From the sequence record PV808484.1: 64,000 bases of DNA; one strand, written 5' to 3'. This document shows positions 18,346 through 58,632 of this stretch, in pieces. Numbering within the stretch: position 1 is the first letter of the stretch; every line of letters begins with the position of its first letter. The notes under the pieces are model-generated. The model searched no databases. It worked only from the letters and a program-made list of their open reading frames with translations, and had not been told where the DNA came from. The stretch is from a phage. A program made the position numbers and the translations under genes.

Positions 18346-18417
18346 AATTTATTATCTCCTTTGTTGTTAATTTACGTTGTCTATTTTACTAATCTTTTCT
18401 ACAAAGTCAAGCGTTTT

Positions 18418-19212: not shown

Positions 19213-19213
19213 A

Positions 19214-19483
19214 TTATTTCTCCTTTCTGACTGTAATGTTAGTAACTTCTAAATCCACTTCTACCACTTCTGTATCATATAAAATACAGTTAAGTTGACC
19301 TCTTTGTGAACCGTTCAGACACATTGCTTGGTTTGTATTAACCTTAATAAACACTAAGTTTCTGAACGTATCTAAACCAGCATCTTGATAGGCAACATAA
19401 TATACGAATGTATCACCTGTGTCAAGTTCTCCAAAACATTTAGGTTCATCTGATTTGTCGTCTTTGATATTAAATTTAAGCAC
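19214..19483 (-). CDS. hypothetical protein
   Basis: 89-aa ORF. Confidence 0.45.
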   Translation of the reverse strand: MLKFNIKDDKSDEPKCFGELDTGDTFVYYVAYQDAGLDTFRNLVFIKVNTNQAMCLNGSQRGQLNCILYDTEVVEVDLEVTNITVRKEK

Positions 19484-20039
19484 TGTCTTCTCCTTTACCT
19501 GCTCTCAAGCCTAAATAGAAAGCCTCTCTGGTGATCTTTTGCAACTCGTTTAAAGAGATAGTTACAACTAAATCATCTTCAATTTCTAGCTTTGAGTCTT
19601 CTTCTGTCTCAATGCAAGTATTATGCACTTTGTGGTAAGGATTGTCAACACGTTTAAATTTATTATTTTCAGTGCTGAAGAAGCAATCTGGATCTTCTTC
19701 TCCATCACCCCAGCCCTGGTTAGGGTCTTCTTCAGATCTTTCTGTTGGGATCTCACCTGTAAAATGCTCTTCTAATACCATAGCAATACCATCCCCAAGA
19801 TCGGAAGAGAACATCAAATTACAAACTTCTTCCCAAGGCATAGACCACTTGAATCTTTTACGATTGCCATGTTTATCTTCTTCGTTAGAGAAAACACTAC
19901 CATAGCTATCATAATTGCCATACATCTCTTCAATAACTTTACCACCTTTCAAAAGAAATAGGTAGCAAGGAGAGCCATCGAAAGAGGTAGAAAGAGCAGC
20001 ATTACCAGACTCTTTGCATAAGAAACTAAAGCACCCCAT
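19476..20039 (-). CDS. hypothetical acidic protein
   Basis: 187-aa ORF. Confidence 0.5.
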   Translation of the reverse strand: MGCFSFLCKESGNAALSTSFDGSPCYLFLLKGGKVIEEMYGNYDSYGSVFSNEEDKHGNRKRFKWSMPWEEVCNLMFSSDLGDGIAMVLEEHFTGEIPTERSEEDPNQGWGDGEEDPDCFFSTENNKFKRVDNPYHKVHNTCIETEEDSKLEIEDDLVVTISLNELQKITREAFYLGLRAGKGEDSA

Positions 20040-20239
20040 TATACACCAGCCTTAAGATCAATTAAAGCCAAAGTTGTTTCAGAGTGTGTTTGCTCGTCTA
20101 CAGGTGCAGTCATATGATAATACAAAAAGTCTTCGGCATCATACCAATCTGACTCTTGACCTTGTTTCCAACCATCAATGAAAGCATCTTCCATAATGGT
20201 TTGTAACTCTTCACGAGTTAAGTGAATATCTTTACTCAT
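20039..20239 (-). CDS. hypothetical protein
   Basis: 66-aa ORF. Confidence 0.4.
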   Translation of the reverse strand: MSKDIHLTREELQTIMEDAFIDGWKQGQESDWYDAEDFLYYHMTAPVDEQTHSETTLALIDLKAGV

Positions 20240-20472
20240 TACACATTCTCCTCTTTTACCAATTCCATCGTTGAACTATCAAAACCATCTTTAGAAGAAT
20301 AGGTATAGACAGAACGTAGTTCTCGCAGGACAGTGAATACATTAGGATCATCTAACCAAGCATCCTGGAGGAGAACATAACGATCTTCATTGTCGTACTG
20401 GACGGCAATCATAGAACCAGACAGTTTGTAAATTTTAATATTCATAATATATTTCTCCTTAAAGTAGACCAC
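20239..20472 (-). CDS. hypothetical protein
   Basis: 77-aa ORF. Confidence 0.4.
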   Translation of the reverse strand: MVYFKEKYIMNIKIYKLSGSMIAVQYDNEDRYVLLQDAWLDDPNVFTVLRELRSVYTYSSKDGFDSSTMELVKEENV

Positions 20473-21562
20473 GTTTAACAGTTTGAATCATACCATCTTC
20501 AAGAGATTGTACTTCTTGGATGTAATCAATACGAGCAGCACGGGCTTCAGTATTGATTCGGTTAGTTTCTTCTAACATTTTAACTAAGTTTTCTTGATCG
20601 CGACGTAATGTTTCAATATCCAATACTTGACGATTAGCAAGTTGTGTAGCTTCAATTTGGTTTTGTGCAGCCAGATCACTACCCATTGCAATAGCAGCAT
20701 TAAATTCGTTCAGTACATTGTTCTGTGTATCTGCTGCTTTCTTCTGGCGTAGACTTTCAATATACATAGAAAAGTTTGCAGAGTAAGCAGGGATAACATT
20801 ATTCACAATATTACGGGCTGATCGCATCAAACTTGCAGATACTTTCTGCATACTTTGTACACGTGGCCCCATCTGAACACAGAGTAAACGTAAGGCTTTC
20901 AGGTCTGCAATACGAATTTCAAGCAGATCCATAGTATCACGAGTACGTTGACGCTCTTCTACTTCATTTTCAGGTAGTGTATTAAGGCGAACTTCTTCTT
21001 TTTCATAAGTAGCTGTTAGAAGCTCTATATCCCTGTTTAAGCTAAGAGCATATTTGGCAATAGCCTCTTCTAAACGTTGCAGATATCGTAAAGAATCTTC
21101 TTCTTTTTTCAAGTCTGTTTGGAGTGTCTTTACCAAACCTTCAATACGATTATTGATGGTGTCAAATTCTCCAAACAAATCTTCTTTCATACCTAATACT
21201 TTCTTAACTAACTTACCTAAACCTTTAGATTGTTTAATAGAATTAGGATCAAGTTGCTTTGCTTGCTTAATAAGTGCAGTTAAACGTTCACTCATTTCAT
21301 CTCCCTGAGATGAACGCTGGTGTTTAAGCACTTCAGCATTAAGGTTACGAAGAGTAAGTCCTGCATCAGCACCAACTTGTTCAATCTCTTCACGAGACAT
21401 TGGAGGCAGCATTTGTACAGGTCGTGCAACAGCAGGGGCATATACAGGGCTTGCATCCATAGCACTTGGAGCAAACAAAGACTTACTTTTTTCTGTTGTT
21501 GCCGTGAATACACTCATTTCAGACGGTTTGCTTTTTACGGCACTGATAAAAGGACTGGACAT
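20459..21562 (-). CDS. coiled-coil protein, TelA-like (toxic anion resistance family) by context
   Basis: 367 aa, largely alpha-helical/coiled-coil; size and ter-gene neighbourhood suggest TelA; no diagnostic motif confirmed. Confidence 0.4.
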   Translation of the reverse strand: MSSPFISAVKSKPSEMSVFTATTEKSKSLFAPSAMDASPVYAPAVARPVQMLPPMSREEIEQVGADAGLTLRNLNAEVLKHQRSSQGDEMSERLTALIKQAKQLDPNSIKQSKGLGKLVKKVLGMKEDLFGEFDTINNRIEGLVKTLQTDLKKEEDSLRYLQRLEEAIAKYALSLNRDIELLTATYEKEEVRLNTLPENEVEERQRTRDTMDLLEIRIADLKALRLLCVQMGPRVQSMQKVSASLMRSARNIVNNVIPAYSANFSMYIESLRQKKAADTQNNVLNEFNAAIAMGSDLAAQNQIEATQLANRQVLDIETLRRDQENLVKMLEETNRINTEARAARIDYIQEVQSLEDGMIQTVKRGLL

Positions 21563-21630
21563 TCAATTTCCTCCATATTCTTTAGTAGATGGTGATACCT
21601 CTGTACCACCATCATAACACAAATTAAGTA

Positions 21631-22482
21631 TTAAACAAACATATCTAAATAATTTGTAGTAATAAATGCTCCATCTGCTTCCAGATTAACATAACCAGTA
21701 GCATTAGTGGTTAAGAAATCCAGATCGAAAGACTCTTTAACACCCCGTACCTCAACACGAGAGATATCGAATACAGGTAGTGTAACAGCCTCTTCGTGCA
21801 ATACCGTACCTTTGTAGGTTGCCTTAATGATAAACTTGATATTACCCGTTCCAGCATCATACAAAACACTTTCAAACCCTTTGAGAGTATACTTATCACC
21901 AGAAGTGAAGTGCAAAGTTGCTTTGTTTACAGTACGTTTCTTACGAGGAGTTCCTTTCACACGTTTATGATCACTACGTTTTTTGTACTTATGGAATAAT
22001 ACAAACGATACACTATCAAGAAAGGTATCAACATCAAGGATTTTAATATCCTCTGTTGCAGCAAATTTTGAAGTCGTTGCATCAAAATGCTTTTCCCTGC
22101 GATCATACATAAAGATATCAAAACGATCTTCTAAATCAAACAAATTATGTATCTTAATTTCAGAATGCTTGCACATTGCAGCAACCTTAAACTCTTCAAA
22201 ACGTGGGTGTTCTACCAGTTCTTCAAGTTTTACACCAAAGACAGTATATGGCTTCGAAGTTTTTTCTGGCGTTGGCATTACAGAAGCATAATCACCGATT
22301 GCGCTTTTAAAGCAAAATTGTTCTTGACCTGTATTTTTACCAACGAATTTACAATATTCGTCATCGTGCATACTTTCTTTGGTAGTACCAACAAACTCAA
22401 AACCATCTTTATTCTTCTCAAGAATTTCTTGATTAAAGATCCAACCTTCCAGGCGATACACTTTACCAACTTCTAGTTTCAT
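21631..22482 (-). CDS. hypothetical protein
   Basis: 283-aa ORF. Confidence 0.5.
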   Translation of the reverse strand: MKLEVGKVYRLEGWIFNQEILEKNKDGFEFVGTTKESMHDDEYCKFVGKNTGQEQFCFKSAIGDYASVMPTPEKTSKPYTVFGVKLEELVEHPRFEEFKVAAMCKHSEIKIHNLFDLEDRFDIFMYDRREKHFDATTSKFAATEDIKILDVDTFLDSVSFVLFHKYKKRSDHKRVKGTPRKKRTVNKATLHFTSGDKYTLKGFESVLYDAGTGNIKFIIKATYKGTVLHEEAVTLPVFDISRVEVRGVKESFDLDFLTTNATGYVNLEADGAFITTNYLDMFV

Positions 22483-22517
22483 CTGTTTCTCCTTCTTATT
22501 TAATCTGTATTAAATTA

Positions 22518-23108
22518 TTAACGACGACGTGAGCTACTAAAACTACGTTTCGACGAAGAATAACTTTTCGAAGACTTACTATAAGAGCTAATAGGACTTG
22601 AGTAAGACTTACGAGCAGAGTAATCACTATTCACTTTTGTTGTTGATGGGCGTGAATACGTTTGTACACTTTGCTGCTTAATTGTGTTTTGTTTAGTGGT
22701 TGTATATGTATTTACAGGTTTATCATAAAAACTACGCTTTTGTGTTGTATACGATTTACTGTTAGTTGTAGGAGCAGCATTGTTATTAATAATGGTTGTA
22801 TTGCTACCACCATCTCTATAACCACCACCGCCACTGTTACCACTTAACATATGACCAAGAAGCATACCTGTAGCAAACTCACCTACACCAGAAGAACCAC
22901 TGCCGCCTCCTTGCACAACAACTGTTGAAGGTTGTGCAGGTGCTGCTTGAACAACTTGAGGTGCAGGCTGATTTACATATTGTTCATCTACCATCTGATT
23001 TGGTGTTTGTTGGTAACGTTGATTTTGTACATTTTCAGAATCATCACAACCTACCAGCAATGCACTACCTAATACAACTGCAACAATAAAAGATTTAATG
23101 TTTTTCAT
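22518..23108 (-). CDS. lipoprotein with Gly/Ser/Tyr-rich low-complexity tail
   Basis: start moved to ATG 23108 (MKNIKSF..); lipobox LLVGC; GAGAGGG upstream. Confidence 0.55.
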   Translation of the reverse strand: MKNIKSFIVAVVLGSALLVGCDDSENVQNQRYQQTPNQMVDEQYVNQPAPQVVQAAPAQPSTVVVQGGGSGSSGVGEFATGMLLGHMLSGNSGGGGYRDGGSNTTIINNNAAPTTNSKSYTTQKRSFYDKPVNTYTTTKQNTIKQQSVQTYSRPSTTKVNSDYSARKSYSSPISSYSKSSKSYSSSKRSFSSSRRR

Positions 23109-23340
23109 TTGTAACCCTCTCATTTAAAGTCTCAACACAATTTTTAAAATCCCTAGAGAAACAATACATCTGTTCTCCGTTCCTGTTGATAGTAATTGTA
23201 TGGTTATCAATATATGTTGTCAAGATAAAAATCAAACAAAACAACCCTAAAGCAAAACAAATATTTTCAAACAGAATCCAAAGAACACGTAAAACTACCA
23301 TCAGATCACCTCAACAAAGCCCCCGAAGGGGCTTAATGAA

Positions 23341-24318
23341 TTAAGCAACAGTCTGGTCTTCTTTTTCAGGGAAGATTAAACTTGCAATAACACCCAGCCC
23401 CAGAGTACCTAACACAATATACATACTGATCGTCGGATCAATGTGTGCTGGCAGGAAACTCACTTTTGCGTGCAGAGTTTCTGCAAACGGGTGATACATC
23501 AGTTTTACACCCACAAATACCAGGACTACGATAACTGCTTTCTCCAGATGAACCAAATATTTCAGTGCAACACTAAGGACAAAGAACAGAGCACGTAGAC
23601 CTAAAATTGCACACAGCATTGAAGAAAATACAAGCAGAGGTTCTTGTGTCACTGCAATTACTGCTGGAACAGAGTCTACTGCAAAGATTACGTCAACCAT
23701 TTCCATTACAAACACACAAACCAGAGCCGGAGTTGCTACACGAACACCATTTTTGATTGTGAAGAACTTCTCACCATCCATCTGATCAGATACAGGGAAC
23801 AGCTTACGAACAATGCGAGTAGCCCAGTGTTTAGAGTAATCAACTTCTGCGTCATTATCTCCAGCGAATACCATTTTAGCTGCACAGAAAAGGATGACCG
23901 CACCGAAGAAGATATTAACATACCAGCCCAAACTCAACAAGTAAGTGCCTACTGCTACAAACACACCTCGGAAGACAATCGCACCTGCAATACCCCAAAG
24001 TAGAATCTTGTGTTGCAAGTGTGTGCTTTTAATACCAAAACTTGCGAATACTGCCACAAATACTACTAAGTTATCTACAGAAAGAGATTTCTCCAACACA
24101 TACCCACTCAAGAACAAGCTCGCAAAATCAGCACCGTGTTGGAAGTATACAAAACCATAGTAGGCTAATGATACCCCAATCCAGAAAATTGACCAGCCAA
24201 TTGCAGATTTAAATGAAATTTCTTTGTTTTCTCTGTGTCCAAAGAAATCAATACAAATTGACAAGACTAAAATACCCACTAAAACAACCACATCAATAAT
24301 TGGGAAACCCAGTTGCAT
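23341..24318 (-). CDS. TerC-family integral membrane protein
   Basis: 325 aa, multi-pass hydrophobic; LSVDNLVVF and AVDSVPAV motifs typical of TerC/Alx. Confidence 0.7.
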   Translation of the reverse strand: MQLGFPIIDVVVLVGILVLSICIDFFGHRENKEISFKSAIGWSIFWIGVSLAYYGFVYFQHGADFASLFLSGYVLEKSLSVDNLVVFVAVFASFGIKSTHLQHKILLWGIAGAIVFRGVFVAVGTYLLSLGWYVNIFFGAVILFCAAKMVFAGDNDAEVDYSKHWATRIVRKLFPVSDQMDGEKFFTIKNGVRVATPALVCVFVMEMVDVIFAVDSVPAVIAVTQEPLLVFSSMLCAILGLRALFFVLSVALKYLVHLEKAVIVVLVFVGVKLMYHPFAETLHAKVSFLPAHIDPTISMYIVLGTLGLGVIASLIFPEKEDQTVA

Positions 24319-24336
24319 TCTCTTCTCCTCTTTAAT

Positions 24337-24355
24337 GCGGAGGACAATCCTCCGC
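24337..24355. other. GC hairpin immediately upstream of TerC RBS
   Basis: GCGGAGGA-CAA-TCCTCCGC. Confidence 0.35.
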
Positions 24356-24395
24356 TCTATGTCTTATACTATAAACTGTTTTTAAAGAAAGTCAA

Positions 24396-24644
24396 CTAGT
24401 TCAGTTCTGTAATTTTAAGTTTATCTTCTTTGTTAATGATAGGGAAAGCTACAGCATCACCTACATCATCAATAAAGCAAATAGCAAGACCACCTTCCAC
24501 TTTGCTAACCTGACCGTTAAAAGCATGATACGGGGCAGGAACTTCATCCCCATCTTCAATGAGAATAGCCTCGTAAACCTTGCCGATAGTACAATCACGG
24601 GTGTTTATAAATTTTTCAAGCACTTCAACATTTACTTTACGCAT
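24396..24644 (-). CDS. hypothetical protein
   Basis: 82-aa ORF. Confidence 0.45.
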   Translation of the reverse strand: MRKVNVEVLEKFINTRDCTIGKVYEAILIEDGDEVPAPYHAFNGQVSKVEGGLAICFIDDVGDAVAFPIINKEDKLKITELN

Positions 24645-24658
24645 ATAAAGATCCTCTC

Positions 24659-24865
24659 TTATTTGTTAGATTGAAAGATACCACGGAGTACCGCAAGAAT
24701 GAACGTCACACAGACTACACTCCAAAACGTTACAGGAACATGATGCCAGTCTAAGCCGATAATGTCAATCATATAGTTGTATGCTAAAAGCAGTAGCCAA
24801 CTAGGGATTAACACAATCAAGAACACAACAATAAAACAACCTAATACTGCTAAAACACCTGCCAT
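24659..24865 (-). CDS. small membrane protein
   Basis: 68 aa, two hydrophobic segments. Confidence 0.45.
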   Translation of the reverse strand: MAGVLAVLGCFIVVFLIVLIPSWLLLLAYNYMIDIIGLDWHHVPVTFWSVVCVTFILAVLRGIFQSNK

Positions 24866-24874
24866 ACTTTCTCC

Positions 24875-25591
24875 TTATTTCAGTTTGTAAACAATTACAT
24901 TTAAACCTTTGTTTACTAGAGTTTCTTCGATCATAAGTTTTACAATATTCCAAGAACCTCCAGCCAAACCACAACCAAGCATTGGTAAACCTACAATTTT
25001 ACCGCCTGAAGATACAACATCGTCTCCCATACTATCTAGCGCATTGTAGATAGCTTCATAATTCAGGTCACGCTTACCTTCCTCACGACGACTATAACCA
25101 TATTGTCCATATAAATTATAAATTGTCAAATTGTTTTCTGTATATTTGGTAAACGTACCTAATTTTTTATAATCACCACGTTTAGTGGCACAATCTGCTT
25201 TAAACGCACCAGGCCACTTGCTTTTAATTTTTGGTGCAATACCACTACCCATAGTGCAAAAACAGTTACAGCAGTGTGCTATAGCGTCTATATCGCCTCT
25301 CTCGGCTGCTGCTAAAAGATCACCGTATACCTCAATGATACCTGCCGGATAACTTGTTACAATTTCATCTTCCCAATACATTTTCTCTACACCACCGATC
25401 AGTGCAAAGTTTTGTGTAATGCGATCATCAATATAGTTAAGACCTGAAACATACACAGCGTATTCATCCTGTGCTGTAATACCTTGCACACGAATTCTTA
25501 AGACACCATCTTTATCTGTTGCTACACGCCCAAAATCTTTTTCTGTAATATTGGTGATAGGATCTCCGAAAGTCATTACTTTATTAGACAT
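24875..25591 (-). CDS. macro-domain protein, TARG1/OARD1-like (DarG-type ADP-ribose hydrolase fold)
   Basis: start moved to ATG 25591; AHCCNCFCTMGSGIA and GLPMLGCGLAGGSW match TARG1 landmarks HC..MGxGIA and GCGL. Confidence 0.7.
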   Translation of the reverse strand: MSNKVMTFGDPITNITEKDFGRVATDKDGVLRIRVQGITAQDEYAVYVSGLNYIDDRITQNFALIGGVEKMYWEDEIVTSYPAGIIEVYGDLLAAAERGDIDAIAHCCNCFCTMGSGIAPKIKSKWPGAFKADCATKRGDYKKLGTFTKYTENNLTIYNLYGQYGYSRREEGKRDLNYEAIYNALDSMGDDVVSSGGKIVGLPMLGCGLAGGSWNIVKLMIEETLVNKGLNVIVYKLK

Positions 25592-26441
25592 AATAATCCC
25601 CTTTAACATTAGATTTGTTGATAATGTTGCTTTCAAAAAATTGACGTAGGAAATCAAAGTTCTCTTTGTATTTTTCAATGTTATTGTAACCTTCTGCAAG
25701 GCAACCAAAGAACAGTTGTTCTACATAATACAAAGGAAGTTGTGAAAGTGCAATTTTAAAATCAACTTCGCTTTGACTCATTAGATACTTAATAGGACGA
25801 ACCAAACATTTAGCATCAGTTTCTTGCTTAATCATTTTAATAAAAGCTGCCAGGTTATTGATATAGTTGAAGTTAAGTGCAGCTTCGGTATTGGCTTCTG
25901 TACCTTCATACTTTGCAAAGTACAGGAAAAACGTATCGTTTTCAACACCTTCTTTGTCTAAAATTTCAATAAGTTTTTCTTCGTGTGTTCCTGTAATATT
26001 AACATCATCAATGAAAACCAGAGTTTTATTACCCCAGAAATCACGATTGATAGAGAAAGTGTCACCATCGATCAAAGCCTTACGATCTTCTTTACTAAGA
26101 AATCCATAATCATTGATATAGCTCACTTTACGATGAACGATATCCCACTCCACTGCTTTACCTCCTTTGATAGAGATTAGGTAGTTGAGGTGATCTACAA
26201 AATGTTCAGATAACACTGTAGCTGCATTTTTCACATAGTTATATGGAGATGGAATAACAACAAAACTTTCATTTACCAGTCGTTCTTCATACTTGGAAAA
26301 GAAACTTTCAGCCAGAATGCGCCCCATTCTTTTTGCTGCCTGGTTACTACCAAACTTTAACTTGGAATAATCTGCAATGTTAAATTTTGCTTCCTTCAGG
26401 TTAGTAAAAGTATTAGCAAAATGTTGAATTTGATTACGCAT
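25584..26441 (-). CDS. type-I phosphoribosyltransferase-domain protein
   Basis: 285 aa; PRPP-binding-type motif LVFIDDVNITGTHEE. Confidence 0.55.
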   Translation of the reverse strand: MRNQIQHFANTFTNLKEAKFNIADYSKLKFGSNQAAKRMGRILAESFFSKYEERLVNESFVVIPSPYNYVKNAATVLSEHFVDHLNYLISIKGGKAVEWDIVHRKVSYINDYGFLSKEDRKALIDGDTFSINRDFWGNKTLVFIDDVNITGTHEEKLIEILDKEGVENDTFFLYFAKYEGTEANTEAALNFNYINNLAAFIKMIKQETDAKCLVRPIKYLMSQSEVDFKIALSQLPLYYVEQLFFGCLAEGYNNIEKYKENFDFLRQFFESNIINKSNVKGDYYV

Positions 26442-27090
26442 TAATAAGTTCCTCTTTTTTAAGTTTAGCCAACAAGTCTTCTGGATTAATAATATGACAG
26501 AACTTCATCCCTATGTCAACAGCTTTTCCATCATAGATCAAACTATCTCCAACGTGTAAAATCTCCTCTGGTGCGAGATCAAATGTTACCATTTCATCAA
26601 AAGAGAGTTTAAAAAACCTAGGATCTGGTTTACACAAGCAAAACTCATCAGAAAAATGCATAAAGTCGAATGGTAATTTTGTCAAGCTAGAATATACAGC
26701 TAAGAAACTACCAGGTACAAAATTGGTATTGCTTTTAATACTCAAAGAATAGGTTGAACTTAGCTCTTCCAACTTCTTGCAAAGTTCAGGGTTTAATATT
26801 GGAGGATGTTTTATAAACATTGCTAAACAGTCTCTTTTTAACCCATCTACTTTATCAAGATCAATGTTCAAATGAGCAGAAAGTGTTTCCCAAGCATTTC
26901 TAGATGTTCCACAAATGCCTTTTTCTGCTTTTAAATCCAGGAGAGTTTTTACCTCTTTATATACGGTAGCTGCTTCTACCTCAGAACAAGAGGCATACTC
27001 GGCAATAACCTTGTTGCGTTCTTCTGCATACAAAGGATTAGCAGTAATAAGAGTATTCCATACATCAAAAGAAATATGCTTAACAGTCAT
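26434..27090 (-). CDS. HAD-superfamily hydrolase (phosphatase)
   Basis: start moved to ATG 27090 (GGAGG upstream); FDVWNTL motif-I-like, HVGDSLIYDG motif-IV-like. Confidence 0.6.
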   Translation of the reverse strand: MTVKHISFDVWNTLITANPLYAEERNKVIAEYASCSEVEAATVYKEVKTLLDLKAEKGICGTSRNAWETLSAHLNIDLDKVDGLKRDCLAMFIKHPPILNPELCKKLEELSSTYSLSIKSNTNFVPGSFLAVYSSLTKLPFDFMHFSDEFCLCKPDPRFFKLSFDEMVTFDLAPEEILHVGDSLIYDGKAVDIGMKFCHIINPEDLLAKLKKEELINA

Positions 27091-27092
27091 TT

Positions 27093-27248
27093 TTAATCCT
27101 CCGTCCAAAAGAATATCATCTGCTTAATTTTATTGATCTCTTGATGTAGTAACTTTCCAGCATGTGATTGATCTTTAATATTGACAGCAAGAATTTCAAG
27201 CTCCGTTAGTTTTTCTTGGATAGCTTTATATTCATCATCTGTAAGCAT
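27093..27248 (-). CDS. small hypothetical protein (51 aa)
   Basis: not in ORF track; ATG 27248 with AAGGGGAAG upstream; stop abuts HAD gene start. Confidence 0.35.
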   Translation of the reverse strand: MLTDDEYKAIQEKLTELEILAVNIKDQSHAGKLLHQEINKIKQMIFFWTED

Positions 27249-27497: not shown

Positions 27498-28658
27498 TTA
27501 GTAAGAACGACCACCAAACACATACTCTGTGTAGTTTTTACGTTCTTTGTTTTTAATAACAACTTCAATGTTGTTACCTTTATCATCGGTGAACATAAAG
27601 TGATAACCGTCACCACCCATTGTACGGATGTGTTTTTCATCATACGTTAGCAAGATACGGTCTACACCCCAGTAGTAGTCACCTTCTTCATCTTTATCTT
27701 CTACGGTAACGATCCCTTCCATTTCAGGAAGATGCTCTTCACCTAGTTTATGGTCTACAGCTACAACATAACGATTACCGCTAAACAAACCTTGTGCTGT
27801 CATACCGTCAATATCGGTATCTGCCGAAACATCTCCTGTACGATCTACACCGTTAACTTTCAGAAGTTTAACCTCTTTTGCCGCATAGCGGTGTTCAGTA
27901 ATACTGATACCCATCAATGCAAGTGCATCAGAGAATTTGTCATTAGGGTAACGGTTAAGTTCTTCTACTAATGACTGAACAATATCAAAGTTCAAATCCA
28001 CGGAGAGATTATAAAGCGTTTCAAAATCTGGTAAGAAGGCTTTGTTCTCCAGATTTTTAGCCAGATAATCATCCATAGTAGCTTTAGGTAGTTTCTTATA
28101 GCTAAAACTGTAGAAAATACGGCTAGGACGATTACGCAAAAATTCTGATACATAACCATCATTTTTAGTCAATACAAACAGTTTGTCGTAGCCACCAACA
28201 CCATCCAGCAGGGTAAGCAAACCATCTTGTGCATCTTTTTCAGCATACAGTTTATCAAATTCATCGATCATAATCATCACAGGTTGTGTGATTTTAGACA
28301 TAAAATTGATAAAACCTTCGCCATTAAAAGCACTACCGATAGAAATAGTAGGAATACCCATTTCACGAAGAGCAGAAGACAGCATTTTAGCTTGCAAAGT
28401 TTTACCGCTACCTTTCGTACCTTCAAGGAGAACACCTGTGTTTTTACCTTTGCGGCTAAGGAACGTTTTGATAATACGTTCTGATTTATCATCAGTATCA
28501 CCGTATGTTACTGAAGGGACTTCCATATCGTTTTTAGGATACAGGAAGAACTCACCACTTTGAGTAACACCTACACCAAAAGTTCCTGCTGGAATTTCTT
28601 CAATATCTGTACCAGATTTCTGACGCAGAAAGATTTGATTGCCGAATACTGTAAACAT
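27498..28658 (-). CDS. P-loop ATPase, paralogue A
   Basis: 386 aa; Walker A GTKGSGKT, Walker B MIMIDEFDK; clear paralogue of 42904..44031. Confidence 0.6.
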   Translation of the reverse strand: MFTVFGNQIFLRQKSGTDIEEIPAGTFGVGVTQSGEFFLYPKNDMEVPSVTYGDTDDKSERIIKTFLSRKGKNTGVLLEGTKGSGKTLQAKMLSSALREMGIPTISIGSAFNGEGFINFMSKITQPVMIMIDEFDKLYAEKDAQDGLLTLLDGVGGYDKLFVLTKNDGYVSEFLRNRPSRIFYSFSYKKLPKATMDDYLAKNLENKAFLPDFETLYNLSVDLNFDIVQSLVEELNRYPNDKFSDALALMGISITEHRYAAKEVKLLKVNGVDRTGDVSADTDIDGMTAQGLFSGNRYVVAVDHKLGEEHLPEMEGIVTVEDKDEEGDYYWGVDRILLTYDEKHIRTMGGDGYHFMFTDDKGNNIEVVIKNKERKNYTEYVFGGRSY

Positions 28659-42903: not shown

Positions 42904-44031
42904 ATGAAATACACGATTTATGGTGATATTGTAAGTGTAAATAAAGATATGGGCGTGGAATCTAACTACCTTCCACCTGGATTCTATACTGTTAGTCGTG
43001 ATCCCCTTGGCAATTATTTTTTAAGCCGTGGTAATCTGACAGGTGTACCGGATGTTCTGTATGGTGAAACAGAAAAACGAGCAAATCACGTTATCCGTAC
43101 ATTCCATCGCCGGAGTGCACAAGGTAAAAATACAGGTTTGCTCCTGACAGGAACTAAGGGCAGTGGTAAAACTATGTTAGCCAAACTCATTAGTCGTGAC
43201 CTTGTAGAAGAAGGTATTCCAACTATTATGGTTACTCAAGCCTACAGCGATGCTAATTTCATTGAACTTATTAGCAAGATCACCGACAAAGCAGTGATTA
43301 TTTTTGACGAGTTTGATAAAGTGTATGAGAAGAAACAAGATCAAGAAGCACTTCTCACTTTGTTAGATGGTACTGGCAGTGGTAATAAACTGTTTATTCT
43401 GACTAAAAACAGTGGTTTTATCTCTGAATTCTTTTTAAATCGTCCTAGTCGTGTGTTTTATAATTTTAATTATGATAAAATCTCACTAGAAACTATGATT
43501 GACTATTTAGATAAAAACCTGGATAACAAAGCACACTTTGATAATTTCCAAAGACTTTGGGATGTAAGTTTAGAGTTGTCCTTTGATGTGATCCAAGGTA
43601 TAGTAGAAGAACTTAATTTCTACCCTGATTTATCCTTTAAAGAATGCATCTCTATGATGGGCGTTTCTTTAGGTGGTGGTAATAAATGGGATATCAGCAG
43701 CGTTGTTATTAATGGAAAACTTCAGAAAGTTAGCTGGGTATCTAGTTGGCATAACTTCACACCTGCAATCTTTTTAGGTGGTTCGTGCACACTAGACGTG
43801 TACTTGTCATCTCCAAGTGATGCAGATTCTAAAGAAGCCCTTGCTAATAGCTCTTACGTGGTTTTTGATGATGAAGGCGATGCTCGAATTCCATTGAATG
43901 CGACAAAAATGAAAGCAGACCTTATCACAGGCGGTAAAATCGTTGTGTTTAGTGATGATCCAGAAGATTCTTTCCGTATTGTTCTGGAACCAACTATCAC
44001 CAATGGTGCAACTTTGGCAAGCGTGTTTTAA
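42904..44031 (+). CDS. P-loop ATPase, paralogue B
   Basis: 375 aa; Walker A GTKGSGKT, Walker B IIFDEFDK; collinear similarity to 27498..28658. Confidence 0.6.
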   Translation: MKYTIYGDIVSVNKDMGVESNYLPPGFYTVSRDPLGNYFLSRGNLTGVPDVLYGETEKRANHVIRTFHRRSAQGKNTGLLLTGTKGSGKTMLAKLISRDLVEEGIPTIMVTQAYSDANFIELISKITDKAVIIFDEFDKVYEKKQDQEALLTLLDGTGSGNKLFILTKNSGFISEFFLNRPSRVFYNFNYDKISLETMIDYLDKNLDNKAHFDNFQRLWDVSLELSFDVIQGIVEELNFYPDLSFKECISMMGVSLGGGNKWDISSVVINGKLQKVSWVSSWHNFTPAIFLGGSCTLDVYLSSPSDADSKEALANSSYVVFDDEGDARIPLNATKMKADLITGGKIVVFSDDPEDSFRIVLEPTITNGATLASVF

Positions 44032-44045
44032 GTAAGCCAGCAAAT

Positions 44046-44072
44046 AAAAACCCGCTTCGGCGGGTTTTCTTG
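44046..44072 (+). terminator. rho-independent terminator
   Basis: AAAAACCCGC-TTCG-GCGGGTTTT then CTTG. Confidence 0.65.
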
Positions 44073-44105
44073 CATTAATGCCAGATTTAATAAGAGGAGT
44101 AGTAG

Positions 44106-45083
44106 ATGGCAGCACCAAAATCATGGGAACAATATAAAGAAGAGTGTATACCAATAGCAGAGAGTAAGCAAATCCAAATCTTAGGATGGACGGGACAATG
44201 GAAAGGGGGCCACACAAAACTTGATTTGTTGTGCCATTGTGGTTATAAATGGGATACTACAAGTATTAACAGTTTTAAATGTGGTAGCGGTTGTCCACAA
44301 TGTAAGAGGGAGAAACAAACAATGTCCGACGATCAACATATTGCAGGTTTCTTTTCTACAGGGAAATTTAAGGAAGGCACTATCTTCACTAACACAGGAA
44401 CACGGGGTAAAGGATGTAGGCATATTACCTGGATGGTTGAATGTCCTGTTTGCTCTCATGATGAATATGTTCAAGCAGGTGTTTGTGATGGTAAATTTTA
44501 CTCTAAAGGACATCGCCTTAAACAAGGGTATATTCCGTGTCGTTGTGGGAAATATCAGTATACAGAAGACCAGATCACCTATAGGGTAAAAAAGGAAGTA
44601 GAAGGGAAAGGGTATGTCTGGGTAGATTGGATTACCAAACCCTCTTCTATAGGTAAGTTTAAATATCTTTGTCTTGTGCATGGTGAGCAGATAGGGAGTG
44701 CTCGTAATTTATTAAGCCTCGGTCAAGGTTGTCCACAGTGTGCTGGTCATAGTCAACAGCAATTATATATTAATATTGTTAAAGATAATGATATTATAGT
44801 TGCTCTTAAGTTTGGTATAGCTAAAGATAGCGATAGACGATTAAACGGTCAAAATAGCCGTAATCTGTTTTTTATGGAGCGTATTTGTTTATATGATTTT
44901 AGCACAGTGAAACAATGTAAGGCTGCTGAAAGAGCTATAAAGAAAAAATTAAAAACTGGTATTTTAACGGCAAGAGAGTTGAAAGATGGTTATACAGAAA
45001 CAGTAAGTGTTTCTGATTTGGAAAATCTTCAAAAAATTATTACACAATATGGTGGCAAGTTAGTATACAGTAAGGAGGTGTAA
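44106..45083 (+). CDS. zinc-ribbon repeat protein, possible GIY-YIG-like (T5orf172-type) nuclease
   Basis: 325 aa; repeated G(S/Q)GCPQC units; C-terminal LYINIVKD...FGIAKDSDRR; low certainty. Confidence 0.4.
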   Translation: MAAPKSWEQYKEECIPIAESKQIQILGWTGQWKGGHTKLDLLCHCGYKWDTTSINSFKCGSGCPQCKREKQTMSDDQHIAGFFSTGKFKEGTIFTNTGTRGKGCRHITWMVECPVCSHDEYVQAGVCDGKFYSKGHRLKQGYIPCRCGKYQYTEDQITYRVKKEVEGKGYVWVDWITKPSSIGKFKYLCLVHGEQIGSARNLLSLGQGCPQCAGHSQQQLYINIVKDNDIIVALKFGIAKDSDRRLNGQNSRNLFFMERICLYDFSTVKQCKAAERAIKKKLKTGILTARELKDGYTETVSVSDLENLQKIITQYGGKLVYSKEV

Positions 45084-45635
45084 ATGCGGATTACTGATAA
45101 GTATGTGTTCTTCTTCTCGGCAAAAGATGAATTTAGCAACTGGTATCTATCATCTTTTATTGAACCTTTAGCTCCCAAGTATAATAATTCTATCACAAGT
45201 TCTGTCGAATTTACTTGTGTGGAACAATATATGATGTGGAGAAAAGCATGTTTATTTTATGATTACAACATTGCATCTTCTATTTTAACCGGAGATCTAA
45301 GATATACAGGAGAAAAAGAACAAGCATATTATAAGCGACTAGGTAGATTAGTTAAAGATTATGATGAAGATACCTGGACTTCTTTACGGGAGAAGATTGT
45401 CAAACGTGGTTTGTATCTTAAATACACACAAAATGAAGATCTCAAAAATAAACTTATAGCTTACGCAGATAAGGAGTTCGTAGAGGCAAGCCCTTATGAT
45501 TCTATTTATGGTATCAAAATGGGGATGTGGGATCGTGATGTTGAAAATAAGGATTGTTGGAAAGGACAAAATCTTTTAGGAAAATGGCATACAGACCTTG
45601 CTGTTTATCTAAAAGCACAATCTGATATTTCCTGA
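45084..45635 (+). CDS. NADAR (YbiA/DUF1768) domain protein
   Basis: 183 aa; VFFFSAKDEFSNWY, VEQYMMWRKA, YDSIYGIKMG match NADAR landmarks. Confidence 0.7.
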   Translation: MRITDKYVFFFSAKDEFSNWYLSSFIEPLAPKYNNSITSSVEFTCVEQYMMWRKACLFYDYNIASSILTGDLRYTGEKEQAYYKRLGRLVKDYDEDTWTSLREKIVKRGLYLKYTQNEDLKNKLIAYADKEFVEASPYDSIYGIKMGMWDRDVENKDCWKGQNLLGKWHTDLAVYLKAQSDIS

Positions 45636-45849
45636 TATTTTGAAAATTTTTATTTTTATAAAAAGGGGTGTGGGTTTCATGTACGGAAATCCACCCTCTG
45701 AATAATATATCCAGAGTAAGTATTATTCTGTACTCTGTTAATAAATTATTTAATTTGTTTGTTGGATTATGATATCTGGTTTTTAAAAGGCATACTATCT
45801 CTTAACTACTACTTATAACAGAACAGTAAAATCATTTTTATAAAAAGGA

Positions 45850-46055
45850 CAAAATTATTTAAAGTTTTTACAGATTTTTGGGTACAAATTTTGAAAATGA
45901 AAAGTTCAAGTTTGGTCAAAATTATTTAAAGTTTTTGTACGTATTTCCATCCAGATTTTGAAAATGAAAAGTTCAATTTTTTAAAAATTCCCCAGTTTAT
46001 TTAAAGTTTTTTTGCCTTTTTCCGTAGAAAAATCAAAAATGAAAAGTTCAATTTC
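45850..46055. repeat. three tandem ~67-bp direct repeats
   Basis: unit TATTTAAAGTTTTT ... TTTGAAAATGAAAAGTTCAA recurs at about 45856, 45923 and 45989. Confidence 0.6.
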
Positions 46056-46072
46056 GTGTTTTTATAGGTATG

Positions 46073-46190
46073 CGTATGATAATCATTCTCATTTGTAAAT
46101 GAGAATCATTATCATTTAATTATGTAAGTGATAATCATTCTCAGTAAGAGAATGAGAATCATTAGCAAATGAGAATTTTCTCATTTAGAG
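46073..46190. promoter_or_regulatory. cluster of three operator-like palindromes (Fur-box-like)
   Basis: GATAATCATTCTCATTT-GTA-AAATGAGAATCATTATC; GATAATCATTCTCA..GAGAATGAGAATCATTAGC; AAATGAGAATTTTCTCATTT. Confidence 0.5.
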
Positions 46191-46447
46191 AATAACGCGT
46201 AGGGGTGGTGTTTGTCTCGCGCTCCCGTGTCCCCTCGCCATACAATAAGAATAGCATAACCAACAACAAAAGCAAGCGATTATTTTTATCTTTACATTTC
46301 TTTACAAATTTATTTTAGACGAGCTACCGGCGATCAACCTTCCAACCAGTGTGCCCTGGTATGTTAGCCCCGCCTTTACGCCGTGGGGGTGGCGCTTCCT
46401 CTTCTGTATGTAAAACAGTATAAGCCCGATCCCTGGGCTTGTCAAGA

Positions 46448-46714
46448 TTATTTTTTGTTTTCTTGCCAGGATAGGACACCTAACCAAAAATACATGTCGC
46501 CCCGCGCCCCTGGCGGGATCTTGCTTTCCCCGCCGCCACTGCAAGCCCATAGATAACCATTTGCGAACGTATCAAAATGATCTATTTCTTCCACCTTATG
46601 ATCGCCCAGGTTGAGAACGGTTTCAACCTTTAAGCCCGTTGCGCTTGCTACCTGGTGCACCGTGCCGCCTTGCCAGCCTAATGAGTGCATGAGGTGTAAA
46701 GTAGTATTTGTCAT
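46448..46714 (-). CDS. hypothetical protein inside GC-rich island
   Basis: 88 aa from internal ATG 46714; opposite strand to neighbouring early genes; uncertain. Confidence 0.3.
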   Translation of the reverse strand: MTNTTLHLMHSLGWQGGTVHQVASATGLKVETVLNLGDHKVEEIDHFDTFANGYLWACSGGGESKIPPGARGDMYFWLGVLSWQENKK

Positions 46715-46824
46715 GGTATCGCCCTTTCTTTGATGTGCGCCCTGGTTGGCGCGGTAGAAAGATAATAGCCCCTTTCCTTTATAGATAGCAAGCAAAAAAG
46801 AAATGAAAAAAGATTAAAAAAGGG

Positions 46825-46853
46825 TTGACGTTCCTCACCTGGTAGCGTATTAT
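46825..46853 (+). promoter_or_regulatory. sigma70-like promoter
   Basis: TTGACG -17 bp- TATTAT; followed by strong SD and a 6-codon ORF (46907..46927). Confidence 0.45.
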
Positions 46854-46979
46854 TCATCTTGTCGAGGGGGGCGAGGCACAACGACAATAAACAAAAGGAG
46901 GGCGCAATGCAGGACGGGCAAAGGTGAGGATCTCCACAATCCACCGTCACAATAACATTACTTATAAAAGGTTGATAAC

Positions 46980-47075
46980 GATGATCAAGAAAGAAAACAG
47001 CTTGACGGTTGGAACGATTAACGCTATCATTTTCGCCGTTCCATTTTGGGTTGTAGTAGCGGTTATTATCTTTTA
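46980..47075 (+). CDS. small hydrophobic peptide (31 aa)
   Basis: MIKKENSLTVGTINAIIFAVPFWVVVAVIIF; AAAAGG upstream. Confidence 0.3.
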
Positions 47076-47130
47076 AAAATATTCTTGACAACGTTTTTTA
47101 ATCTGATAAGATGTATCACATAGGGCGGCA
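47075..47130 (+). promoter_or_regulatory. early promoter + 5' leader hairpin cassette
   Basis: TTGACA 47075-80, -10 TAAGAT, leader CACATAGG, hairpin GCGGC-AATAGT-GCCGC, ATG at 47165. Confidence 0.6.
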
Positions 47131-47164
47131 ATAGTGCCGCTCATAACAGAAGAGAGAAATAATC

Positions 47165-47437
47165 ATGGCATCATATAGCGCATCAATGATCGTAATGGGT
47201 ATCACTGGTAAACCTATGCGCGGTGGCGGATCTTTCGCTAACATCAATATTGATGGACGTTTATCCCTGGACGCAGCGATCACAGTGGCACGGGAAACAT
47301 TTAAAAAAGAATGTAATTTCAATAAACAAGATTATCTCGGTTTCGCTATTGAAAAAACCGCGCGATTTGTGGATTATAAAAGCCCGAAAATGATCGACAC
47401 TACACTAAAAGCGAAAGATGTAGCGTTTTTGCTTTAA
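47165..47437 (+). CDS. hypothetical early protein
   Basis: 90-aa ORF downstream of cassette. Confidence 0.5.
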   Translation: MASYSASMIVMGITGKPMRGGGSFANINIDGRLSLDAAITVARETFKKECNFNKQDYLGFAIEKTARFVDYKSPKMIDTTLKAKDVAFLL

Positions 47438-47447
47438 GACTTGACAC

Positions 47448-47508
47448 TGAAAAATAATTTGGTAATATATACCACATAAGGCGGGGAAATGGTTTCCCGC
47501 CAAGCCAT
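47448..47508 (+). promoter_or_regulatory. early promoter + 5' leader hairpin cassette
   Basis: TTGACA, -10 TAATAT, hairpin GGCGGGGAAA-TGG-TTTCCCGCC. Confidence 0.6.
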
Positions 47509-47526
47509 CAAAGAAAGGGTAACACA

Positions 47527-47889
47527 ATGAGCAAGCAAATCAATACTATCATGTTAAACCTGGTATCTTTCCGCGATGACGTGAAAAATCTTTCGCGTGA
47601 TGCAGTGGATGCACGGATCGAAAGCTATCGCACACAGATCGCAACATTACCGTTAAAACGTGATCAACATGCCGCTAATATGATGCTTGATGCTATGATT
47701 AAAAAGATGATTCAATGTGATCTTACTCTGGCTTATGAATATGCTGGCGATCTTTTTGTAACATATAACAAGCCCGTTCCAGGTATGAGCACCACGGAAG
47801 AATTGCATGCCTTAAATCTGCGACAAGATGCATGGGATAACATGCGCCGTGTTATGGTATGGGTAGAAAGCGGTAAAATTTACGAATAA
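47527..47889 (+). CDS. hypothetical early protein
   Basis: 120-aa ORF. Confidence 0.5.
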   Translation: MSKQINTIMLNLVSFRDDVKNLSRDAVDARIESYRTQIATLPLKRDQHAANMMLDAMIKKMIQCDLTLAYEYAGDLFVTYNKPVPGMSTTEELHALNLRQDAWDNMRRVMVWVESGKIYE

Positions 47890-57150: not shown

Positions 57151-57354
57151 TACCTAAATAAAGATGATAGCTTTTACCTATCAAAAACATTCACCGAAAA
57201 AAGTGAATAGATCGCGGTATCGAGCTAATCAAGGAGCAGATGAACAACCATACCATGAAGATCATAAGGCGCTTACAACGTGTTTTAAACCGCTTATTTT
57301 TAATTTCTCCATGTAACTATCTGGCAAAAACAGCCTTTTTCGTGTCTTTCCTCT

Positions 57355-57435
57355 TAAGTGATAATCATTCTTATTTATAGCTGATTATTTATGCAATAAA
57401 CTGCATAATGCAATAATGATAATCATTCTTAACTT
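57355..57435. promoter_or_regulatory. pair of Fur-box-like sites
   Basis: GTGATAATCATTCTTA at about 57358 and AATGATAATCATTCTTA at about 57414. Confidence 0.45.
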
Positions 57436-57439
57436 ATGA

Positions 57440-57780
57440 CCATCTAACCTATAAAATAATAAGTTATCTAACTAAATTAAAGCTAATTATTTCACCTTTA
57501 TTTATAACTTACTGTTACTATCTCATTGATAACCTTATATTAAACAACAATAACTAATATAAATCATTACTAAGCTAAATATAATCTATCTAACCTTTAA
57601 AACTATAACTATAATCTATCGAATTGTTGCACAAAGTAACTATTAAATTGTTAGTAACATTACTAAATAATTCATATCCTATCTATTTATGATCTAATCT
57701 TTACTTTCCTATCTATTACCTAAATAATCCTATCATACAGTTACCATTTCATGTAATAATCATTTCATACAATAACTATA
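57440..57780. repeat. AT-rich iteron-like short repeats
   Basis: recurring CTATCTAACCT / CTATCTAT / ATAACTATAA words in 340 bp without coding potential. Confidence 0.45.
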
Positions 57781-57837
57781 ACAAGAAATATAATTCGCAA
57801 GCGTATCATTAGCAGCCTATGCCGGACACATAGGCGG

Positions 57838-57985
57838 CTAATAATAACGCAACTACACACCCCACATAATAACCATCACCGATAGTTATTATTTGTGCTT
57901 ATGTAGCTTGCAACAATTGCAAGCGCAACAATATACATGGTATATTGTATCCCTTACATTGTTGCGGTGCGTTATTATTAGCTAA
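57838..57985. repeat. long-range inverted repeat with internal palindrome
   Basis: GCTAATAATAACGCAAC ... GTTGCGGTGCGTTATTATTAGC ~110 bp apart; internal CTTGCAACAATTGCAAG. Confidence 0.45.
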
Positions 57986-58282
57986 TGTTTGGAACATTGG
58001 CTATAATATAAGCTAAATAATAAGCTATTCAATAATAAACATAATGAATAATGACACTGATGATCATAATGCGCCACCTTCCAGGGGGCGCTATGTGAAC
58101 ACAAAGAAATCTTTCTTGTCAAGAAAAATATTAACACTATTGCGCAAAATTATTTATGTCTGAATAGATGATTTTTCATACTATTGTTATTATTTATCGG
58201 CCCTAACTATTGCCTATTTGTTGAGCCTACTTTCTTAAAAGCGCAATAAATCAGAATTATCTTGATTTTTAGGGTGTTTTAT

Positions 58283-58305
58283 AGTATAGAAAATATGCAA
58301 ATGAT
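58283..58305. promoter_or_regulatory. Fur-box-like site (17/19 match to GATAATGATAATCATTATC)
   Basis: GCAAATGATAATCATTATC read directly. Confidence 0.5.
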
Positions 58306-58482
58306 AATCATTATCAGCTATCTTCCACGGGTGGCACTATTTCACGCAGGATCATTTCATTTGGCAAGGTGTATATAGATGTTTAGACTTGCCAAGCCAT
58401 TGATTTACTTAGAATTTATCTGTTTTGTTGTGAGTAGTACCTTTCTTGCTCAGAAAATAATCAAAAGTCTTATAAGTCATTG

Positions 58483-58515
58483 AATGATAATGCAAATGAT
58501 AATTATTCTCATTGA
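58483..58515. promoter_or_regulatory. overlapping Fur-box-like sites
   Basis: GAATGATAATGCAAATGATAATTATTCTCATTGAT. Confidence 0.45.
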
Positions 58516-58632
58516 TATTTGAGGGGGACGGTCGGCAGAAATCGGGGGGCGCTGAAAATCGCGTTAAGCACCTCTCGCAAGCGAGCAGTATTTTGCGGCA
58601 AGTTATTGATATTATTGGCTTTACGCTTATGG

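Follow-up and report, generated by a model that had tools for sequence, protein, structure and literature searches.

The window analysed in this work, 64,000 nucleotides of the phage sequence record PV808484.1, belongs to the genome of a phi92-like E. coli phage (genus Justusliebigvirus). Megablast with positions 44000-47000 matched 140 phage records, and the top record was Escherichia phage EmilieFrey (BASEL Bas61; Justusliebigvirus, Stephanstirmvirinae), which aligned over the whole query (100%) at 98.4% identity. An open reading frame for a NADAR protein of 183 residues lies on the plus strand of this segment, exactly where the original prediction had placed it. All three motifs quoted in that prediction are present in the translation, namely VFFFSAKDEFSNWY at residues 8-21, VEQYMMWRKA at residues 46-55 and YDSIYGIKMG at residues 138-147. 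The features of the locus are the following:

45072..45078, plus strand: Shine-Dalgarno sequence AAGGAGG, 5 nt upstream of the NADAR ATG (sequence reading)
45084..45635, plus strand: coding sequence of the 183-aa NADAR protein (AdfN^Bas60-type anti-DarT factor), ATG to TGA with the stop codon included (open reading frame)
45222..45245, plus strand: codons of the EQYxxxxK motif, from E47 (45222-45224) to K54 (45243-45245) (HMMER-based residue mapping)
45483..45509, plus strand: codons of the VEASPYDSIYG motif, with E134 (45483-45485), D139 (45498-45500) and Y142 (45507-45509) (residue mapping)
45664..45699, plus strand: stable G+C-rich hairpin, 29 nt past the NADAR stop codon (folding)
45834-46054: three direct repeats of about 70 bp in the repeat-rich region after the NADAR gene
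46074-46176: palindromic array in the repeat-rich region after the NADAR gene

As read from the sequence, the NADAR start codon comes directly after the TAA (45081-45083) that ends the upstream gene, which implies that the two genes are co-transcribed and makes coupled translation possible. Translation of the NADAR gene is thus well supported, both by this abutting stop codon and by the AAGGAGG ahead of its ATG. The eight genes ahead of the NADAR gene are on the plus strand. The upstream neighbour encodes a CapR/T5orf172 endonuclease, for which PADLOC gave no hit, and the downstream neighbour is non-coding. Pfam and PADLOC scans of the neighbours found no DarT in the flanking genes, nor does the Bas61 annotation list one in the 43 kb around the gene. 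Furthermore, neither a tRNA nor a tmRNA was detected in the window by ARAGORN. The NADAR gene is present at a nucleotide identity of at least 95% in 56 phage records, phi92 gp223 among them, and it can therefore be considered a core gene of Justusliebigvirus.

Downstream of the stop codon, no credible open reading frame was found from 45636 to about 46447, where the G+C content is 0.22-0.28. With the repeats and palindromes that this region contains, the gene is the last one before a large repeat-rich non-coding region, as had been expected. The fold of 45630-45730 has an energy of -26.4 kcal/mol (z=-3.2), and none of 200 shuffled sequences was as stable (0/200). As no U-run follows the hairpin at 45664-45699, it does not qualify as a canonical intrinsic terminator, and a consensus terminator scan found no terminator after the NADAR gene. 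The hairpin may instead act as a stabiliser of the mRNA 3' end or as a processing site. A permissive Rfam scan of 45500-47600 returned sub-threshold chance matches only. Across the window, nine Fur-box-like palindromes were observed, compared with 0.8 expected by chance; four of the nine form the array directly downstream of the NADAR gene (46074-46176), the core of which is conserved in Bas60-62. A further Fur-box array is located at 57350-58520. No relevant literature on Fur boxes in lytic phages came up in a search.

The Pfam NADAR profile (PF08719, DUF1768), which had been proposed as a check of family membership, matched the protein with E=2.5e-36 and 125.8 bits (gathering score 35.1), and the alignment spans profile positions 9-154 of 163. 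The protein also matched PHROG 1017, annotated as function unknown (E=3.5e-50). Its homologues numbered 532 in a collection of 5.8 billion proteins, and PF08719 was found in all of them. The conservation counts and the AlphaFold2 model given here rest on an alignment of 48 of these 532 homologues; the model has a mean pLDDT of 97.3 and a pTM of 0.91. A single-sequence search of the PDB found 8BAU, the NADAR of Phytophthora nicotianae (PnNADAR) with ADP-ribose, at E=9.5e-13. The 48-homologue profile matched 8BAU with E=9.4e-37 and E. coli YbiA (2B3W; COG3236) with E=7.7e-18. By Foldseek, the model had two significant matches only in the PDB, and these were the same two structures: 8BAU (TM 0.77, E=6e-10, 28% identity) and 2B3W (TM 0.68, E=3e-6). 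PnNADAR is thus the top match among solved structures both in sequence and in structure, with YbiA more distant. No DarG1 structure was retrieved from the PDB by sequence or Foldseek search with the window protein.

In 8BAU, eight residues make contact with ADP-ribose, namely E43, K50, R79, W89, R93, E125, D130 and W133 (PMC11543638). By HMMER alignment they map in the window protein to E47, K54, R88, W98, R102, E134, D139 and Y142, respectively. All eight residue types are recovered with one numbering offset (+2, between the paper and the chain index), and the mapping is thereby validated. Seven of the eight contacting residues are identical to those of PnNADAR, including the Glu of the E125 type; the exception is Y142 in place of W133, a position that is occupied by Trp in 38 and by Tyr in ten of the 48 homologues. 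E47, K54, K84, G87, W98, E134, D139 and G143, among others, are invariant (48/48). PnNADAR otherwise differs in its low overall identity and in that the window protein is encoded by a phage. The E47/K54 pair of the EQYxxxxK motif is equivalent to E43/K50 of PnNADAR, E88/K95 of the DarG1 of E. coli C7 and E36/K43 of T4 AdfN. The roles of this Glu/Lys pair are taken from PMC11543638 and PMC11825919; the Glu is catalytic and the Lys binds phosphate, as in PnNADAR and C7 DarG1. The families differ at the third catalytic position, where NADAR and YbiA members carry Glu, DarG1 carries Asp and the T4-like phage NADARs carry His (PMC11543638). In the window protein this residue is E134, which corresponds to E125 of PnNADAR.

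By comparing the protein with those of related BASEL phages, near-identity to an experimentally studied factor was observed. It is identical to bas61_0107 of Bas61 at 183/183 residues, a protein annotated as 'putative YbiA-like N-glycosidase', and it matches the Bas62 copy at 182/183 and bas60_0111 of Bas60 (PaulScherrer) at 181/183 residues. The two differences from the Bas60 allele (N62S and A178T, with Asn62 and Ala178 in the window protein) are conservative, and neither is near the residues mapped to the active site. The order of the locus is shared as well, with an AAA ATPase, the CapR/T5orf172 endonuclease, NADAR and a repeat-rich intergenic region, although the upstream endonuclease is longer in the AdfN^Bas60 phages than in the window phage. 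NADAR proteins occur in Bas32/33 and in Bas60/61/62, and the latter were named AdfN^Bas60 in the source study (Johannesman, Awasthi, Carlson & LeRoux, Nat Commun 2025;16:1598; PMC11825919; preprint PMC11257639). As described there, AdfN^Bas60 neutralises DarT1 toxicity in E. coli when no phage is present, and its ectopic expression brings RB69, T5 and Bas25, three unrelated phages that are sensitive to DarTG1, back to full titre on DarTG1 hosts, with no rescue of T5 on DarTG2. The same paper places AdfN^Bas60 in a tree with bacterial NADARs that are neither DarT-associated nor YbiA, and independent phage capture was proposed (PMC11825919). Reversal of DarT-type guanine ADP-ribosylation, which the original prediction had proposed from reports on NADAR proteins, has therefore been demonstrated genetically for a protein that differs at 2/183 residues. 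Judged by this sequence identity, the window NADAR and its anti-DarTG1 function are already known, having been published in 2025 as AdfN^Bas60. Neither an in-vitro hydrolase assay of AdfN^Bas60 nor a deletion of its gene in Bas60-62 was found in the examined text of PMC11825919, and a literature search for deletion of AdfN^Bas60 in its native phage or for DarTG testing of Bas60-62 yielded only Johannesman et al.

The relation to YbiA raises the question of whether the protein could be a damage-control N-glycosidase that acts on reactive intermediates of the riboflavin pathway, its activity on ADP-ribose being incidental. The NCBIfam model TIGR02464 (riboflavin biosynthesis intermediates N-glycosidase) scores the protein with 109.8 bits (cut-off 73.7), YbiA itself shares the fold, the third-site Glu and the match to this model, and several GenBank records use 'YbiA-like N-glycosidase' or 'GTP cyclohydrolase II' for the NADAR gene. 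However, TIGR02464 describes the entire NADAR fold at the level of the domain, and a match to it cannot tell one function from another; both labels follow from this domain-level match, and the YbiA-like one is imprecise. The protein is nearer to PnNADAR than to YbiA by both profile and fold, as the values above indicate, the single-sequence search did not recover YbiA at E<=0.01, and the published tree position of AdfN^Bas60 likewise lies outside YbiA. No riboflavin genes were found among the window genes examined, and the protein is a single 183-aa domain with no RibA or RibD fusion. Moreover, an anti-DarT1 phenotype has been shown directly for a nearly identical protein, and even E. coli YbiA hydrolyses guanine-linked ADP-ribose in vitro (PMC11125620). 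It was reported in the same work that YbiA does not protect cells from DarT1. A riboflavin-pathway role is on this evidence very improbable.

Within the NADAR superfamily, the protein was also compared with two further systems that act against DarT1. The first is T4 AdfN (gp30.3), an orphan phage NADAR with the same role against DarTG1 and with the E...K catalytic pair in common. Assignment to the T4-type phage NADAR family was nevertheless rejected, as BLASTP against gp30.3 gave E=2.2 and the third site is Glu134 and not His. Full activity of T4 AdfN depends on a T-even context, and on its own the protein cannot neutralise DarT1, whereas AdfN^Bas60 can (PMC11825919). The lack of similarity to gp30.3, the Glu in place of His and the independence from context indicate that the two NADARs were acquired independently. 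The second system is DarG1 (E. coli C7, Geobacter/Trichlorobacter lovleyi), which has the common superfamily fold, hydrolyses guanine-N2-linked ADP-ribose and serves as the antidote of DarT1. In contrast to the window protein, DarG1 carries a basic N-terminal extension with K115; the NADAR domain of the window protein begins at about residue 8-13 of 183, so that there is no room for a DNA-binding N-terminal extension of this type. A DarG1 antitoxin was thus rejected as well, since the window protein has no DarT gene linked to it, lacks the extension and carries Glu134 in place of the catalytic Asp (D171 in C7). On the other hand, the members of the stand-alone family (PnNADAR, the NADAR of the E. 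coli sigma70 operon and SCO5665 of S. coelicolor) are single domains without a toxin partner, like the window protein. Based on Glu134, the greater closeness to PnNADAR than to YbiA, the dissimilarity to gp30.3 and the absence of both an N-terminal extension and an adjacent DarT, the protein is classified from its sequence as a stand-alone 'NADAR-proper' enzyme, in agreement with the published tree.

We propose that the gene encodes an orphan ADP-ribosylglycohydrolase of the NADAR family, the Justusliebigvirus allele of AdfN^Bas60, which would clear the guanine-linked ADP-ribose made by DarT1 from phage DNA (probability of roughly 0.9). In an infected DarTG1 host, DarT1 links ADP-ribose to guanine N2 in phage DNA and so stops its replication. 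The phage NADAR would then bind the ADP-ribose, with K54, R88, W98 and R102 directed to the diphosphate and the adenosine, and with E47, E134 and D139 placed around the distal ribose. Hydrolysis of the N-glycosidic bond between ribose and guanine, at a site formed by E47, K54 and E134, would return unmodified DNA, and the protein would in this way serve as an orphan antitoxin in counter-defence. The thymine adducts made by DarT2 would fall outside its action; NADARs are established as hydrolases of ADP-ribose on guanine N2, and thymine-linked ADP-ribose is not a substrate (Schuller et al., 2023, PMC11543638; Cihlova et al., 2024, PMC11125620). Hydrolysis of guanine-linked ADP-ribose by the window protein is expected from the in-vivo neutralisation of DarT1 by AdfN^Bas60, and the same bond chemistry would follow by analogy with T4 AdfN, DarG1, PnNADAR and YbiA, for all of which hydrolysis in vitro is known. 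The gene is presumably also needed by the phage that carries it.

DarT1 reversal might also be only one facet of a broader eraser with other main targets, which is very improbable in our estimate. The targets that come into consideration are guanine-linked ADP-ribose in RNA, cytidine-linked ADP-ribose made by pierisin/ScARP-like or YarT-like toxins, and cyclic or linear ADP-ribose signals. The window protein is a NADAR of the Glu type, and NADAR/YbiA members of this type remove cytidine-linked ADP-ribose from DNA and RNA, which DarG1s and the T4 NADAR do not (PMC12945103). Guanine-linked ADP-ribose was removed from RNA by all NADAR families tested (PMC11833690), and small-molecule targets were proposed by Aravind's group (PMC9503650). 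AdfN^Bas60, in addition, acts for heterologous phages and on host DNA, and thus it is not narrowly specialised. However, this broader range draws on analogy with other NADARs, no E. coli anti-phage defence that makes cytidine-linked ADP-ribose or guanine-linked ADP-ribose in RNA is established in the literature examined, and the DarTG1 phenotype suffices to explain why the gene is retained. It is more improbable still that the protein reverses or tunes ADP-ribosylation by a transferase of the phage itself, in the manner of T4 Alt, ModA and ModB, instead of that by a host defence. Large myoviruses often carry ADP-ribosyltransferases (ARTs), and T4 Alt lies near the NADAR gene 30.3, but the scan of window proteins, which covered only part of the small open reading frames, detected no ART domain, and none is present in the Bas61 annotation of the homologous region of about 68 kb. 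Moreover, the NADAR substrate is base-linked ADP-ribose, whereas the product of Alt and Mod is linked to protein.

According to the original prediction, the phage would carry a second reversal enzyme, a 'TARG1-like' macro domain. The corresponding feature is a separate gene:

about 24875..25609, minus strand: macro-domain protein (coordinates transferred from the Bas61 annotation of bas61_0068; start codon uncertain)

The macro domain comprises the C-terminal residues of this protein, about 150 in number (Pfam Macro, E=2.2e-7). Among PDB structures the protein matched SCO6735 (5E3B, E=3e-15), BT1257 (E=4e-15), TARG1 (E=3e-10) and DarG (5M31, E=1e-3). It also matched NCBIfam antitoxin_DarG with E=5.6e-13, which is below the cut-off, and PADLOC DarG with E=1e-13, in both cases over the macro part only. 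Judged by these matches, the macro protein is an orphan member of the TARG1/DarG/SCO6735 clade, and the description as 'TARG1-like' is fair at clade level. The description does not extend to the active site. In the HMMER alignment both TARG1 catalytic residues, Lys84 and Asp125, are absent, their places being taken by Gln164 and Ala211, respectively. The GQxG...GCGLAGG pattern of the protein is that of SCO6735 and BT1257. SCO6735 is listed as cleaving the thymidine-linked ADP-ribose made by DarT2 (PMC12945103), and the macro-type anti-DarT factor AdfM has been shown so far only in chimalliviruses (PMC13309987).

The gene order around the macro gene in the window is TerD, vWA-TerF, TelA ... TerC, macro, ComF-like PRTase and HAD hydrolase. 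The HAD-PRTase-macro-TerC order is kept in the sister genus Phapecoctavirus, and in the Pseudomonas Pakpunavirus a homologous macro gene adjoins genes for nicotinamide phosphoribosyltransferase and ribose-phosphate pyrophosphokinase. These neighbours belong to phosphoribosyl metabolism and to the Ter genes, which disfavours a simple anti-DarT2 reading of the macro protein. The gene context suggests, as a serious alternative, that it may take part in the processing of phosphoribosyl or ADP-ribose metabolites. The NARP3 pathway was considered for the macro/PRTase/HAD cluster and was rejected, as NARP3 consists of PnuC and NadR. No experiments on the phage macro protein were found in the literature.

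That NADAR and the macro protein would act as two chemically distinct reversal enzymes, as the original prediction had it, is no more than plausible. Their co-occurrence across related phages had been suggested as a check, and both genes were indeed found throughout the genus, with NADAR in the 56 records given above and the macro gene in 55 phage records at a protein identity of at least 95%. As both are core genes of the genus, their co-occurrence carries little independent information. A study of 2022 had already described NADAR-Macro co-occurrence as enriched in DNA viruses (PMC9503650). We tentatively hypothesize, by analogy and with considerable doubt, that Justusliebigvirus might possess a genus-wide anti-DarT kit, in which AdfN would act on guanine-linked ADP-ribose and the macro protein, as an analogue of AdfM, on the thymine-linked form, and in which AdfN, being a 'NADAR-proper' enzyme of the Glu type, would in addition erase cytidine-linked ADP-ribose and guanine-linked ADP-ribose in RNA. 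If this were true, the phages would have broader cover against ADP-ribosylating toxins than a T4-type AdfN gives.

The importance of the NADAR gene lies in the correction of annotation and not in discovery. In most GenBank records of phi92-like phages it is labelled 'hypothetical protein', 'YbiA-like N-glycosidase' or 'GTP cyclohydrolase II', when it is in fact an experimentally supported anti-DarTG1 AdfN. Related NADARs are found in 717 phage records, which include myoviruses of Staphylococcus, Listeria, Enterococcus, Bacillus and Klebsiella that are used in therapy. The recognition of AdfN-related NADARs helps to predict which phages escape DarTG1.

Relatives of the NADAR protein at 30-45% identity were found in 717 phage records by a phage database search, including Staphylococcus Kayvirus-like, Listeria P100-like, Enterococcus, Bacillus, Klebsiella, Cronobacter and jumbo Erwinia phages, among others. 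These relatives are usually labeled as hypothetical or "GTP cyclohydrolase II". In this phage, the gene is directly preceded by an endonuclease gene that matches PHROG 681 "endonuclease", with counterparts at two homologous loci from close relatives (L002 and L003, in their own coordinates):

44106-45083, plus strand: CapR zinc-ribbon and T5orf172 (GIY-YIG-like) endonuclease
L002 97-1500: endonuclease counterpart
L003 328-1500: endonuclease counterpart

The endonuclease has 325 aa in the window and in Bas61; the Bas62 version (390 aa) and the Bas60 version (467 aa) are longer by one or two additional N-terminal CapR-type repeats. The upstream gene is a homing-endonuclease-like and fast-changing gene that abuts an anti-defence gene.

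The macro gene lies in a different part of the genome, where a Ter-type module is carried on the minus strand (17749-27108), with the macro, PRTase and HAD hydrolase genes coming after TerC:

17749-18345, minus: TerD
18418-19212, minus: vWA-TerF-like
20459-21562, minus: TelA
23341-24318, minus: TerC
24875-25609, minus: macro
25584-26441, minus: ComF-like PRTase_3
26434-27108, minus: HAD hydrolase

The gene order HAD-PRTase-macro-TerC is kept in Phapecoctavirus. The TerD-to-HAD gene set resembles the Ter-associated "nucleoside-like metabolite" gene sets that Anantharaman, Iyer and Aravind reportedly described in 2012. Furthermore, the phage has two paralogous AAA ATPases, which databases annotate as "FtsH-like protease" or "ATPase" and which are evidently alike in the N-terminal region and around the Walker motif:

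42904-44031, plus: AAA ATPase, 375 aa, two genes upstream of NADAR
27498-28658, minus: AAA ATPase, 386 aa, beside the HAD-PRTase-macro cluster

On the 3' side of the NADAR gene, the following elements were observed:

45664-45699, plus: strong hairpin after the stop codon (region fold -26.4 kcal/mol, z = -3.2)
45834-46054: direct repeats, three imperfect copies of ~70-79 bp each, 72-73% identical
46445 to 46417, minus: sigma70-like promoter (TTGACA-17-TATACT, 11/12), the strongest of the region
46448-46714, minus: small ORF, annotated in Bas60-62

The hairpin was missed by the terminator scan because it has no U-tract. Each of the direct repeats terminates in TTTTGAAAATGAAAAGTTCAA, the G+C content across the stretch that holds them is 22-28%, and a "repeat_region" is annotated at the homologous position in phage inny. 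These repeats could represent iterated promoters or an origin-like element. Beside the AT-rich repeats, G+C rises abruptly to 0.46-0.55 in 46200-46800, where the Rfam scan found no RNA family; the minus-strand promoter adjoins terminator-like hairpins.

The pattern TGATAATNATTATCA, known as the E. coli Fur-box 7-1-7 consensus, was matched 9 times in the window at ≤2 mismatches (0.82 expected), a count reached in 0 of 100 shuffles of the sequence:

46074-46176: array of four matches, directly 3' of the NADAR gene
46973, 57359, 57417, 58302 (perfect) and 58497: single matches

Two intergenic regions, both large and with little coding sequence, contain all nine matches. When the array was compared with Bas60, Bas61 and Bas62 by the stricter version of the pattern, TGAKAATCATTMTCA, 2-3 of its sites were kept at the homologous position in these phages. 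A literature search for Fur boxes in lytic phages found nothing relevant. The Fur-box-like palindromes could act as iron/Fur-responsive phage promoters or could serve in Fur titration.
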